Positions 4,763 to 9,961 of a stretch of 64,000 nt of DNA are shown in pieces. The position numbers and the translations under genes were made by a program. A model generated the notes under the pieces. That model was not told the origin of the DNA and ran no database searches. It worked only from the letters and a program-made list of their open reading frames with translations. Numbering within the stretch: the first letter of the stretch is position 1; the number at the start of each line of letters is the position of its first letter. The DNA is from Escherichia coli (GTDB taxonomy: Bacteria; Pseudomonadota; Gammaproteobacteria; Enterobacterales; Enterobacteriaceae). The stretch lies in NCBI RefSeq assembly GCF_003334355.1, contig NZ_QOWP01000002.1; one strand, written 5' to 3'.

Positions 4763-6283
4763 TTAAAGGTGCAAAGACGCAAGACGCAGAATTTCGTTTT
4801 GCGTTGTTGTTTTTGTGTCGACAATTCCGGAAACGAGACCATTGCTCATGACCAGAATACGGTCTGTTATCCCTAACAACTCAGGCATTTCAGAGGAGAT
4901 AATAATAATCCCCTTGCCTTTCTTCGCCAGTTCGGCAATTAACTGATAAATTTCAAACTTCGCCCCGACATCAATACCGCGCGTCGGTTCATCGAGCATT
5001 AATATTTCTGGTTGCGTTAACAGCCAGCGACCAATAATCACCTTTTGCTGATTACCACCTGAGAGCGAACCAATTTGCGTCCGATGACCCGGCGTTTTCA
5101 CCCGCATCGAATCAATCACCCACTGGGTATCGCTTTTCATCCGCGAGTTATCCAGTAAACCAACTTTATTTTTGTAGTTGCGAATATTGGAAATTAACGA
5201 GTTAAAACCGATATCCAGATAGGCATAAATTCCCGTTGAGCGGCGCTCCTCAGTTACCAGTGCAAATCCGTGGTTTATGGCTTCGTTGGCATTATGGTTA
5301 TTGATCTGTTTGCCGTGCAACGTTATGGTGCCAGCCGATTTCTCGCGAATACCAAATAACGTCTCAACAATATCGGTACGTTTCGCCCCCACCAGACCGG
5401 CAATACCGAGGATCTCCCCTTTATGCAGATCAAACGAGACATCGCGAATCGACGGCTGGCGCAGTGACGTCAGGTTACGCACCTCGAGGATGACTTCGCC
5501 CGGCTTGTTTTCTTTGTCAGGGAAACGCTGGTTAAGAGAACGCCCAACCATCATGGCGATGATCTTGTCCATCGTCAGTCCTGCCAGCGGTTCAGTGGCG
5601 ATCCACTGACCGTCGCGCAATACGGTAACTTCATCACATAACTGGAAGATTTCTTCCATTTTATGCGAGATATAAACAATACCGCAGCCGCGCTCTTTTA
5701 ATTTACGAATAATAGTGAACAGATGATTGACCTCTTTTTCGGTTAACGAAGAAGTCGGTTCATCCATAATCACAATTTTCGCGTTATAGGAAAACGCTTT
5801 GGCGATTTCGATCATCTGCATTTGCGAAACAGATAATGTGCCGACGCGCGCACGCGGATCGATATCAATATCCAGTTCATCAAAAATCGCTTTGGTTTCG
5901 CGGTACATTTTGTCCTGATCGACAAACATGCCTTTGGTGGGGTATCGCCCCAGCCACATGTTATCCATCACCGAACGTTGTAATACCAGGTTTAACTCCT
6001 GGTGTACCATCGAAATACCATTTTCCAGGGCTTCTTTTGCAGAATGGAAATCGATCTCTTTACCCTGGAATAAAATGGTGCCGGAGTCTTTTTGATAAAT
6101 ACCAAACAGGCATTTTAATAATGTCGATTTTCCTGCACCGTTTTCCCCCATTAATGCATGGATAGAATGTGGCCGGACTTTTAAATTAACGTTATCAAGT
6201 GCCTTAACACCAGGAAAGGACTTGTTGATACCGCTCATTTCCAACAAGTATTCCCCGGAGGACGGAGTCGTTGAGCTGACCAT
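4763..6283 (-). CDS. mglA: Galactose/methyl-galactoside ABC transporter ATP-binding protein MglA (duplicated ATPase domains)
   Basis: 506-aa ORF with Walker [10 protein letters not shown] and an LSGG signature in both halves. Confidence 0.93.
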
Positions 6284-6343
6284 ATAATTTTACCTTGTTG
6301 GTCATACAATAAGGGCGCAGTAATAGACTGCGCCCAATCAGTC

Positions 6344-7342
6344 TTATTTCTTGCTGAATTCAGCCAGGTTGTCTTTATCTACGCCAACATAAGGTACGCG
6401 GACCACTTTGTTGTCGATTTTCCAGTTGGTGCCATCAGCCGCACCTTTGCCATCGGCCAGGTTTTTCGCCAGATCAAAGGTCGCTTTCGCCTGGTTGTTA
6501 GCATCGTTCAGTACGGTGCCCGCCAGTGCACCGGATTTCACCAGCGCCAGCGCTTCTGGCAGCGCATCGACGCCAAACACCGGAATGCTGGACTTGTTGT
6601 GTGCTTTCAGTGCTTCTACCGCGCCCATTGCCATCGCATCGTTGTTGGCGATAACCACTTCGATTTTGTTGGCGTTCGGGCCAGACAGCCAGGCGTCCAT
6701 CTTATCTTTCGCCTGAGCGGTATCCCACATAGCGGTATCTAACTGTAACTGTTCAGTTTTAATGCCTTTGTCGTTCAGCTCTTTAATCACGTAAGTGGTA
6801 CGTGCTTCTGCATCCGGATGGCCCGGTTCACCTTTCAGCAATACGAATTGAATCTGACCGTCTTTGTTCAGATCCCAACCCTGATTCGCCGCCCAGTGTT
6901 TAGCAATCAAATCGCCCTGAATAATGCCGGACTCTTTGGAATCAGTGCCAACGTAGTAGGCTTTGTCGTAGCTATCCAGCGCCTTACGAGACGGTTCTTT
7001 GTTGAAGAAAACCACCGGCACGTTTTGCCCACGCGCTTTCTCAATCACCGTACCCGCAGCTGCCGGGTCAACCAGGTTGATTGCCAGTGCCTTCACCCCT
7101 TTCGCCAGCAATACGTCGATCTGATCGTTCTGCTTGGACTGGTCATTCTGAGAATCATTCATCAGCAGCTGAACATCTGGCGCGGCTTTCGCATCTTGCT
7201 CAATAGCCTTGCGCACTACAGACATAAAGTTATCGTCGTACTTATAGATTGTTACACCAATGCGAGTATCAGCAGCGTGTGCAGCGGCACCGAATAACAT
7301 GCTGGCCATCACAGCAGACAGGGTTAACACCTTCTTATTCAT
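6344..7342 (-). CDS. mglB: Periplasmic D-galactose/D-glucose-binding protein MglB
   Basis: 332-aa ORF with N-terminal signal peptide [23 protein letters not shown]; first gene of mglBAC. Confidence 0.93.
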
Positions 7343-7593
7343 GGTATCTCCGGTTTTTCTTATGCAGGGTAGTGCTTGAGATAAATGCTCGGCGGGGCAG
7401 TAGAGTTAATGAAGTGTTACTGAACGCCGAAGCTCACTTTTTAAAATTCGTTCTTCCATGCCCGGTAACGCTCCAGAAAACGGCTTTAATTGTTGTTATG
7501 ACGCTATTACCTCGGTGAAAGTGATTATTCACTGTTACATACGGGTTACAACGTTAAAACGGTGCAATCATAGCCATCACATTGTTAAGATAC

Positions 7594-7609
7594 TGTGAAA
7601 TCACTCACA
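7594..7609. promoter_or_regulatory. CRP-binding site (TGTGA-N6-TCACA) in the mglB upstream region
   Basis: Perfect tgtgaaatcactcaca, about 250 bp upstream of the mglB start codon. Confidence 0.7.
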
Positions 7610-7611
7610 GA

Positions 7612-7627
7612 TTGAAAGCGGTTACAT
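7612..7627. promoter_or_regulatory. Putative GalR/GalS operator adjacent to the CRP site (mgl operator), overlapping the galS stop codon
   Basis: ttgaaagcggttacat resembles gal operators (GTGGTAGCGGTTACAT-like); my recollection of the consensus is approximate. Confidence 0.55.
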
Positions 7628-8662
7628 CGCCTGATTTGTTGAGTTAGTGATCGCCGCCGCATTCTGGCGCGTTGCGACAGAATGGCGACGCACTAACGTC
7701 GGCATAAAACAGTGGCTGGCACGAGGATCAATATTGCCTGCTGCCCCCTGCAAGGCCAGTTCGGTGGCTAATTTAGCCATTGAAGCAATGGGATAACGCA
7801 CGGTCGTTAATTGCGGGTCGGTGTAACGGGCGATGGGAATATCATCGAAACCGATGATTGAGAGATGTAACGGAATCGCAATGCCATTATCTTTTAATGC
7901 TGTCAGTGCGCCAGCGGCCATATTGTCGTTATAAGCAAATACAGCGGTAAGTTGTAGATTGCGCCCCAGCAGTTCAACCATCGCCGCCTCACCGCCCGGC
8001 ATGTCCGGCGTACCAGTGCCAATCCAGCTTTCCGGCGGAATAATATCCTGCTCTTTCAACGCACTCATCCAGCCTGCTTTACGCATGGCGTCATCTTCAA
8101 TGCCGTGACTGGAAGAAAGATAACCAATACGTTGATGACCGTTATTCAGCAACATGCGCGTCGCCATTCGGGCACCGCTGAGATTATCCAGGCAAACGCA
8201 ACGATGGGCGTACCCCGGCACAACGCGGTTGATTAACACCATACCGGGAATGTTATCCATAAATTGCGCCAGTTCATCGTCACTCAATGCTTTTGAGTGA
8301 ACAATCAACGCATTACAACGCTGGCGAATTAACACCTCAATGGCGTGACGCTCTTTTTCCGCTTCATGATAGCTATTGCCGATTAGCACGTATTTCTGAT
8401 GCTGCTGAGCGACTAGATCCACCGCTTTTACCAGCGCGCCGAAAAACGCATCAGAAACGTCCATCACCACCACGCCAATGGTGTCGCTAACCTGAGTTGC
8501 CAGCGCCTGGGCATTGGCGTTTGGCCGATAATCCAGCTCACTCACGGCTTTCATTACTGCTTCACGCGTGTCGGCACTGACCAGCGTGCTGTTATTGAGC
8601 ACCCGGGAAACCGTTGCCACAGAGACGCCAGCCTGACGCGCTACATCACGAATGGTGATCAT
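7622..8662 (-). CDS. galS: Galactose isorepressor GalS (LacI/GalR family)
   Basis: N-terminal [27 protein letters not shown]; ATG at 8662 chosen for the 346-aa product (ORF track extends to 8668). Confidence 0.92.
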
Positions 8663-8738
8663 ATTCACTACCTGTTATGAGATTGCAGTAAATGACTGCT
8701 TGCTGGCGGCTATTTTGTCAGCACTGAATACAGGACTT

Positions 8739-8754
8739 CGTGAATCGAGTCACA
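8739..8754. promoter_or_regulatory. CRP-like site upstream of galS
   Basis: cgtgaatcgagtcaca matches TGTGA-N6-TCACA at 9 of 10 positions. Confidence 0.55.
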
Positions 8755-8757
8755 GCA

Positions 8758-8773
8758 ATGGAAACGGTTACAG
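8758..8773. promoter_or_regulatory. Putative GalR/GalS operator in the galS promoter (autoregulation)
   Basis: atggaaacggttacag is operator-like and part of a palindrome aaacgg-N6-ccgttt. Confidence 0.45.
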
Positions 8774-8803
8774 CCGTTTTGTTAACGAATGTGATCCAGA
8801 TCG

Positions 8804-9961
8804 TTATCTTGATGTTTTAGATATTGCCGGTCCGGCAGCACGCAAAGTTAACTGACGCCAGAGCCATTCCACCGGCCCCTGGCGGAAGAAACGCAGCCAG
8901 ATAACAGAGAAGAGGATATTCGCCAGCCATACCGGAATAACAAACGCCAGCAGCTCCAGGCGGTCAAAATGCATAAACAAACCGAGGTGGTAAAAAAGCG
9001 TGGTACAAATCAGCGTTTGCAATAGATAGTTGGTCAGCGCCATCCGTCCGACGCAGGCGATCGCAAGCACCAGCTTAAAGCGGCTCAATTGCGGCCAGAA
9101 ACCATAAAACAGCGACGCATAGCCTATCGCCTGAAACGGCGCACTCAGTTCCCGCGGCATCTGAAGTAAGAAGGCGCACCAGCGATATGCCCAGTCCAGC
9201 CGCCATTGCAGGGCGATGGCAGGAAGGTTAATGATCACCCCAATCGCCACCAGCACAAAACCAGTACGACGATAGTGACGTAAGCTGAACTGCCCTTTCA
9301 GCCAGCCACTGCGCATCAATGCGGCACCAATGAGCATCATCCCAGCCAGTTGCCAGCCATACTGTGCGCCCAGTGCCAGTAAACTGTTGCCAACACCATC
9401 GGCACGATTACTGATCGCATCAACGCCGCCGTGAAGCTTCCAGTATTTTTCATACAAAATAGCCGATGCATCCGGCGTCCAGGCGCGGCTGGTCTGGCTA
9501 TCGGAAATCAACCCCAATAACAGCAAAACGCCAAGCCCCACCAGATAAAGCATGACGCCTGTATTAAACAGGCTTTTTACCGATGGCGCATCGCGCACCA
9601 GCCGCCAGCAGATTAAGCCCACCAGCCCGTAAGCCAGCAGAATATCGCCGTCCCAGAACAGTAAACCGTGAATAAAGCCCAACAAGACTAACAGCGTTAA
9701 CCGCGACTGGATCCAGCGTCTGCCACGGGGCAGCAACATTTGCAGGCCCGCACCAAACAGCAGCGCAAAAAGCGTGAGGAATTTCACCTGGCCGACGAGA
9801 TCAAGAAATGCCCAAGTCCATGCATCCTGCGGCGTAATAGCGCCGTACCAGGCGGGATTAAGATAAGCCGCCTTTGGTAGCCCAAAGGCGCTGATGTTTA
9901 ATAGCAGGATCCCCAGAATGGCGACGCCGCGAACAAAATCGAGCGTGACGTTGCGCTCCAT
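8804..9961 (-). CDS. yeiB: Inner membrane protein YeiB (DUF418 family)
   Basis: 385-aa polytopic membrane ORF immediately downstream of folE on the same strand. Confidence 0.85.
   Translation of the reverse strand: MERNVTLDFVRGVAILGILLLNISAFGLPKAAYLNPAWYGAITPQDAWTWAFLDLVGQVKFLTLFALLFGAGLQMLLPRGRRWIQSRLTLLVLLGFIHGLLFWDGDILLAYGLVGLICWRLVRDAPSVKSLFNTGVMLYLVGLGVLLLLGLISDSQTSRAWTPDASAILYEKYWKLHGGVDAISNRADGVGNSLLALGAQYGWQLAGMMLIGAALMRSGWLKGQFSLRHYRRTGFVLVAIGVIINLPAIALQWRLDWAYRWCAFLLQMPRELSAPFQAIGYASLFYGFWPQLSRFKLVLAIACVGRMALTNYLLQTLICTTLFYHLGLFMHFDRLELLAFVIPVWLANILFSVIWLRFFRQGPVEWLWRQLTLRAAGPAISKTSR

Follow-up and report, generated by a model that had tools for sequence, protein, structure and literature searches.

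The window, by which we mean the whole stretch of DNA analysed (64,000 nucleotides of contig NZ_QOWP01000002.1), belongs to an Escherichia coli chromosome and contains the genes galS, mglB and mglA, all on the minus strand. The features recognized at this locus are collected in Table 1. Positions in MG1655 were converted to window positions by subtracting 2233006. For galS, the list of open reading frames gives 7622-8668, beginning at an upstream GTG, and the MG1655 annotation leads to the shorter gene of Table 1.

The 421 bases spanning the galS/mglB region were found with 95-100% identity in 5426 of 5426 complete E. coli genomes. From mglB to galS the sequence differs from that of K-12 by 22 substitutions and no indels; four of the substitutions (7506, 7516, 7517 and 7575) lie between galS and mglB, none of them inside any named element. 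Compared with the K-12 mglBAC promoter/operator (mglBp, O_mgl), this is the same locus in a strain that is not K-12: the operator, CRP site, -10 hexamer, +1, stem-loop and Spot 42 site are identical and nothing substantial differs. The region is the canonical control region of mglBAC, the galactose/glucose transporter operon, and was already known. It has been so for a long time (Hogg 1991; Weickert & Adhya 1993, both as cited in PMC5110547).

Table 1. Features of the galS-mglB region, in window coordinates and in the order in which they are read on the minus strand.
Feature	Position	Strand	Details and basis
galS CDS (Gal isorepressor)	7622..8662	-	MG1655 2240628-2241668 mapped; RefSeq labels
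mgl operator (GalS/GalR site), ATGTAACCGCTTTCAA	7612..7627 (read 7627-7612)	-	centre -59.5; contains galS stop
CRP site, TGTGAGTGATTTCACA	7594..7609 (read 7609-7594)	-	perfect TGTGA-N6-TCACA, 10/10; centre -41.5
mglBp -10 hexamer, TATGAT	7567..7572	-	6 nt upstream of mapped start
main mglB start (+1), G	7560	-	Kim et al. 2012, supplementary table
mglB 5' untranslated leader, 218 nt	7343..7560	-	Kim et al. 2012; PMC3119520
second 5' end, 140-nt UTR	7482	-	Kim et al. 2012, 9 reads
predicted imperfect stem-loop, about 65 nt	7410..7475 (+86..+151)	-	outer helix UGGAGCGUUAC/GUAACACUUCA, inner GGAAG/CUUC
predicted Spot 42 pairing site	7363..7385	-	leader +176..+198 with Spot 42 nt 1-19
Shine-Dalgarno, GGAG	7348..7351	-	inside invariant ACCGGAGATACCATG; sequence, 27-species alignment
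mglB CDS (periplasmic galactose/glucose-binding protein)	6344..7342	-	ATG at 7342; ORF list, RefSeq label, MG1655 annotation
mglA CDS	4763-6283	-	ORF list, MG1655 annotation

Read on the coding strand, the end of galS runs into the control elements of mglB in the order ...GCG ATG TAA CCGCTTTCAA TC TGTGAGTGATTTCACA GTATCTTAACAATGTGATGGCTATGATTGCACC G... The operator lies 2 bp upstream of the CRP site, giving a centre-to-centre distance of 18 bp, and the mglB ATG follows 259.5 bp after the CRP centre (7601.5). The initial annotation, which had placed a perfect CRP site about 250 bp before mglB and next to it a gal-operator-like sequence overlapping the galS stop codon, was exact on both sites: the TAA (7624-7622) forms positions 4-6 of the operator, whose half-site TGTAAC supplies the stop.

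The sequence ATGTAACCGCTTTCAA matches the consensus GTGNAANCGNTTNCAC at 10 of its 12 specified positions, with the critical positions 3, 5, 9 and 15 intact, and fits the 16-bp hyphenated dyad GTGNAANC.GNTTNCAC, in which G3, A5, G9 and A15 are all present. The motif match alone was not significant, since two hits were found in the window against 2.2 expected when three mismatches were allowed. We accepted the operator as real because it is conserved at all 48 Enterobacterales loci described below, coincides with a GalR ChIP-chip peak and is hit by adaptive mutations. The GalR operator reported for this place, TTGAAAGCGGTTACAT at MG1655 2240618-2240633, corresponds to window 7612-7627, and the ChIP-chip peak at 2240625 was assigned to mglB (PMC5110547); the same paper labels the operator inconsistently, as 'OE (galS)' in its Table 1 and as 'mglB' in its Table 3. 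A published operator mutation 3 bp from the mglD/galS end renders mgl expression semi-constitutive. Under glucose limitation, repeated hard sweeps were observed at 2,238,647 (C>A) and 2,238,648 (G>T), in v2 coordinates (PMC7863352); in the window these sites are 7619 and 7620 and make up the CG in the middle of the operator, where mutations derepress mgl.

Further gal operators or operator-like sequences are present nearby. Within the mglB coding sequence, at 6526-6541, lies the gal-operator-like sequence GTGCACCGGATTTCAC, which has two mismatches and is devoid of the central CG; it has been named 'O (mglB)' and was linked to other GalR sites by 3C (PMC5110547). The operators of galS itself are ATGGAAACGGTTACAG at 8758-8773, upstream of the gene, and GGGAAACCGTTGCCAC at 8605-8620, just inside it, and match the published GalR ChIP-chip sites 2241771 and 2241619, respectively (PMC5110547).

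The perfect CRP consensus occurs twice in the window, against 0.03 occurrences expected, and none of 100 shuffled sequences reached two. The CRP site at mglB has also been touched by experiments: mglB serves as the CRP-activated positive control in Reg-Seq, and an adaptive mutation at v2 coordinate 2,238,630, i.e. window 7602, falls within the site (PMC7863352). In vitro, galR and galETKM were the sole operons of the gal regulon transcribed without regulatory proteins. The second perfect CRP consensus of the window, TGTGAATCTTTTCACA at 918-933, falls between yeiS and preT, some 100 bp ahead of the preT ATG (1028), which suggests that the preTA operon (dihydropyrimidine dehydrogenase) may be under CRP control through this site.

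For a comparison among bacteria, one genome per species was scanned with the mglB peptide pattern YKYDDNFM, yielding 120 loci. Each of the 48 Enterobacterales loci in which galS immediately precedes mglB has a perfect CRP site together with an operator of the form (A/G)TGTAACCGNTT(T/C)CAA, at exactly 18 bp centre to centre. The galS TAA lies inside the operator at 27 of these 48 loci, and at the others it is found 3-39 bp upstream of the first base of the operator. The 18-bp spacing occurs in Aeromonas as well, where galS is not upstream, and many Pasteurellaceae show a spacing of 19 bp. In Enterobacteriaceae the CRP site lies 229-261 bp from the mglB ATG, compared with 127-311 bp in Yersinia and 140-226 bp in Serratia; the values for Pantoea/Erwinia, Dickeya and Aeromonas were 273-305 bp, 351 bp and about 100 bp, respectively. 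The constant spacing between the two sites, taken together with their varying distance from the gene, indicates a fixed operator-CRP module followed by a leader that is long but variable.

At five Haemophilus/Rodentibacter loci (L023, L059, L018, L115 and L093), the best operator match was not 19 bp upstream of the perfect CRP site but 30-41 bp downstream, where it covers the core promoter; this position comes from a best-match scan only. If the scan is right, the same operon would be repressed with a different geometry in some Pasteurellaceae.

No terminator-like site was predicted on the minus strand between the galS stop codon and mglB, and at no locus with galS upstream is the space between galS and the mglB promoter large enough for one. 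Because the galS stop is located inside the operator, a full-length galS transcript necessarily runs through the operator and then through the CRP site and the core promoter. The earlier remark that galS read-through transcription would pass through its own target operator thus understated the case, the stop codon itself being part of that operator.

A terminator-like dyad around the -10 hexamer was considered as a galS terminator and is not supported in E. coli: 79% of the cells pair, covariation did not exceed that of shuffled alignments and the dyad is degenerate in E. coli. In many Enterobacteriaceae outside Escherichia/Citrobacter (Enterobacter, Kosakonia and relatives, e.g. loci L014, L051 and L058), the two arms of a 7-bp dyad enclose the -10 hexamer as their loop (CGCTGAC-TATGAT-GTCAGCG), and TTTT follows. 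This dyad occupies columns 49-68 of alignment A1 (window 7579-7560), its final G aligns with the mglB +1, and on a galS read-through RNA it resembles an intrinsic terminator.

An arrangement of the same kind is found in the lacI-O3-CRP-lacZ region, where, as verified in MG1655, the lacI TGA lies within O3 and the CRP site follows 20.5 bp further on, with no terminator between. Both lacI and galS are genes for LacI-family repressors that end inside an operator for the same repressor. The lac region differs from mgl in that O3 is an auxiliary operator which loops to O1, the CRP site is at -61.5 (class I) and the lacZ leader is short. LacI bound at O3 was described as a roadblock to lacI transcription, as a result of which truncated LacI becomes SsrA-tagged (Abo et al. 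2000, as cited in PMC3711431).

By this precedent, the operator at the 3' end of galS could also, or mainly, serve galS itself. Occupied O_mgl would halt RNA polymerase a few nucleotides before the galS stop, generating a stop-less mRNA, and the tmRNA-tagged product would be degraded, lowering GalS; once galactose has freed the operator, transcription of galS would continue into mglBAC. The level of GalS would then be coupled to operator occupancy. The position of the stop codon within the operator, or at most 39 bp upstream of it, at the Enterobacterales loci and the galS-mglB gap free of predicted terminators are in line with this scheme. Against it, the stop lies upstream of the operator at 21 of the 48 loci, so that the overlap is not obligatory; a lone dimer-bound operator makes a weak roadblock, LacI requiring O1-O3 looping according to PMC3711431; galS already has operators at its promoter; and galS went unmentioned among the top-ranked literature matches on roadblock, SsrA, tmRNA or nonstop. 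With one operator only, and an overlap that part of the loci lack, a galS roadblock is unlikely to be strong, and we regard this role of the operator as improbable overall. Somewhat less probable still is that the overlap is functional in the manner of lacI/O3, as a second autoregulatory loop to which the leader stem-loop might be linked.

With the operator read as the repressor site of the mglB promoter, its position and that of the CRP site can be referred to the published mglB start. A 5' end of mglB with a 218-nt 5' UTR was mapped in MG1655 with 6 reads (Kim et al. 2012; PMC3415461, supplementary file 2), in a genome-wide survey with few reads per end, carried out in K-12 rather than in the present strain. 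The published upstream sequence, ending ...TATGATTGCACCG (flanking sequence CTGTGAGTGATTTCACAGTATCTTAACAATGTGATAGCTATGATTGCACCG), places this start at window 7560. The G at +1 is invariant in alignment A1 (column 68; 27 Enterobacteriaceae), and CTATGAT is nearly invariant among the same number of Enterobacteriaceae. For mglBAC, a 5' UTR of about 250 bp has been given in both E. coli and Yersinia pestis (PMC3119520). The CRP site is centred at -41.5 from the published start, and TATGAT stands in register at -12 to -7, as in a class II promoter. The long mglB leader that the initial annotation had deduced from the distance of the two sites was in this way borne out by 5'-end mapping; a start close to the ATG with a CRP site of its own was not encountered, and no site with three or fewer mismatches to the CRP consensus was detected in 7343-7565.

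Most mglB mRNA could instead come from an independent promoter inside the leader, located either at the second 5' end (7482), which has 9 reads against 6 at the upstream start, or at the lone sigma-70-like match returned by the consensus scan of the leader, TTGTAA-16-AATAAT at 7551-7524. The latter can be turned into an active promoter by a single change: a '+30' mutation in mglBp that creates a consensus -10 was described in the Reg-Seq preprint, and it fits the conversion of AATAAT (7529-7524) into TATAAT with a start no more than 2 nt from 7560. The same result implies that the wild-type AATAAT is inactive as a -10, and the match is at the level of chance (one found, 1.0 expected). Upstream of 7482 there are only poor hexamers (such as AACAAT for the -10) and no CRP site. 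In addition, adaptive up-mutations fall in the upstream operator and CRP site and none in the leader, and 7482 lies 7 nt upstream of the conserved hairpin, a position typical of a protected processed end. A leader promoter as the main source of mglB mRNA appears very unlikely. The 7482 end may represent a weak promoter or a processing site; a processed end shielded by a 5' stem-loop would suit its location.

The AATAAT at 7524-7529 (leader +32..+37), one substitution short of TATAAT, is part of a conserved near-palindrome, GTGA(A/T)TAATCAC, which comes after a conserved ATGTAAC, a copy of the left half-site of the operator.

The reading of the operator and CRP motifs as functionless chance matches has practically no probability left, being already refuted by conservation and published genetics: the operator-like match does occur at chance frequency when three mismatches are allowed, but a perfect CRP site is expected just 0.03 times per window, both sites are kept at their exact 18-bp spacing across Enterobacterales and into Aeromonas, and ChIP-chip and genetics back their function.

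The control module so defined is followed by a leader that was analyzed for conserved structure and for small open reading frames, both raised in the initial annotation; the search was positive for the former and negative for the latter. The candidate reading frames, a 32-aa ORF with a GTG start (7532-7434) and a 17-aa ORF with an ATG start, were discarded, as frame, length and sequence were not conserved among 26 Enterobacteriaceae. Folding of the whole leader was no better than that of shuffled sequences (z = -0.40), the RNAalifold consensus was weak (-6.0 kcal/mol, with a covariation term of -0.57), and a scan of 6000-9000 on both strands against Rfam 15 produced no match at E <= 1. The leader is thus without global structure and contains a local stem-loop only.

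Of the 16 pairs proposed for the stem-loop at 7475-7410, 88% of the cells are paired and in six of them both bases have changed (1 of 500 shuffles did so), and the covariation score was 0.170 vs 0.127 (0 of 500 shuffles), slid controls giving at most 0.081; the structure was drawn after inspection of the same sequences, which favours these statistics. The same architecture appeared in single-sequence folds of seven species, with z values of -0.1 to -3.0. A covariance model searched against 52 loci with default filters returned Mixta (35 bits), one marginal Pantoea hit and nothing else; with the filters off, nothing credible was obtained in 15 further Erwiniaceae/Yersiniaceae loci. Its absence from Yersiniaceae agrees with the remark that the Yersinia leader is unrelated (PMC3119520). 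As judged from these alignments and folds, the mglB leader holds an unannotated predicted stem-loop that is conserved in Enterobacteriaceae.

Downstream, the leader between 7420 and 7361 (+141..+200) is rich in C and poor in G (21 and 7 residues, respectively, in 60 nt). The stretch spans the Spot 42 site and stops about 10 nt short of the Shine-Dalgarno sequence; in composition it resembles a putative Rho-loading region. In chemostats, rho and hfq mutations sweep together with mgl operator mutations (PMC7863352). The stem-loop and the C-rich stretch may decide what becomes of the long leader, through processing at 7482 or through access of Rho.

The leader also carries, close to the mglB start codon, a candidate pairing site for the small RNA Spot 42. 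Nucleotides 1-8 of Spot 42 (GUAGGGUA) are predicted to pair with the seed UACCCUGC at 7370-7363, i.e. -28 to -21 from the ATG, and the best duplex in a scan of the seed region had -18.4 kcal/mol, 9% of the shuffled sequences being as good. Folding of the full-length Spot 42 duplex had given unrealistic long-range duplexes that were no better than those of shuffled sequences, and was set aside for the seed-region scan. Several blocks of the leader are conserved in the alignment of 27 Enterobacteriaceae. One of them, CTACCCTGCA, lies 21-30 nt before the ATG, can pair with the Spot 42 5' end and does not vary among 26-27 Enterobacteriaceae. The motif CCCTAC/CCCTGC is kept in Yersinia, Serratia, Erwinia, Aeromonas and some Vibrio.

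In Salmonella, Spot 42 and Hfq repress mglB through a conserved site in the 5' UTR, as demonstrated with compensatory mutations (Holmqvist et al. 2016). Regarding the E. coli leader, we infer from the sequence that Spot 42 pairs in the same way; together with Hfq it would bind 21-43 nt before the mglB ATG and repress translation. At other Spot 42 targets, such as galK, the 5' seed likewise pairs just upstream of the ribosome binding site of a CRP-activated sugar-uptake gene, as predicted for mglB; the mglB target differs from these in that its validation was obtained in Salmonella, the pairing in E. coli being the prediction made here. CRP and Spot 42 would form a feed-forward loop on mglB. 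Further Spot 42 targets in CRP feed-forward loops were reportedly described by Beisel & Storz in 2011.

The perfect complement of the Spot 42 5' GUAGGG, CCCTAC, was found upstream of mglB well beyond the Enterobacterales, at four Aeromonas loci (L015, L044, L067 and L099) and at the Vibrio/Photobacterium loci L016, L092 and L096. This suggests that the interaction between Spot 42 and mglB may be older than the species set of Holmqvist et al. 2016.

Taken together, the elements of Table 1 suggest how mglB would be regulated. cAMP-CRP bound at -41.5 would activate a sigma-70 promoter (-10 TATGAT) as a class II activator, with transcription starting at 7560. In the absence of galactose, GalS, and more weakly GalR, would occupy the single 16-bp operator at -59.5, covering the position normally taken by the alpha-CTD of RNA polymerase upstream of a class II CRP dimer. 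Because the operator sits at this position and the layout copies that of galE P1, we propose anti-activation: the repressor would most likely block CRP-dependent initiation, by exclusion of alpha-CTD or by contact inhibition, and not by occlusion of the core promoter.

The parallel with galE P1 was re-derived from the MG1655 sequence, in which OE is centred at -60.5 and the CRP site at -41.5, compared with -59.5 and -41.5 at mgl. In both cases a GalR/GalS operator is placed directly upstream of a class II CRP site, with a spacing of 19 bp at gal and 18 bp at mgl. Unlike mgl, galETK has a second, internal operator, OI (+53.5), which serves HU-dependent looping; it also has a second promoter, P2, and its CRP half-site is weak. 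At mgl, a single operator accompanies a single CRP-dependent promoter; the CRP site is perfect, the leader measures 218 nt and the operon responds mainly to GalS.

The transcription start, GalR binding, the genetics of the operator and, in Salmonella, regulation by Spot 42 are supported by the literature; it is the genetics that ties GalS to the operator. The exact positions, their conservation and the lack of a CRP site nearer to mglB were established by the present analysis. The joint model, comprising class II activation by CRP, repression by GalS/GalR, a 218-nt leader, Spot 42 pairing and a galS stop codon inside the operator, is in our judgement almost certainly correct.

As such, the finding has little significance, since a region present in every E. 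coli regulatory database was re-derived from raw sequence. Its worth is that of a positive control: the position of the promoter, the long leader and the overlap of operator and stop codon had been inferred correctly by a blind reader. For the organism, the mglBAC control region is a classic target of adaptive mutations during glucose limitation. For the repressor family, lacI/O3 and galS/O_mgl have in common that the repressor gene stops inside its own operator and that a CRP site comes directly after; at galS the arrangement is conserved across Enterobacterales, which hints that autoregulation through a roadblock and nonstop mRNA may be more general among LacI-family repressors.
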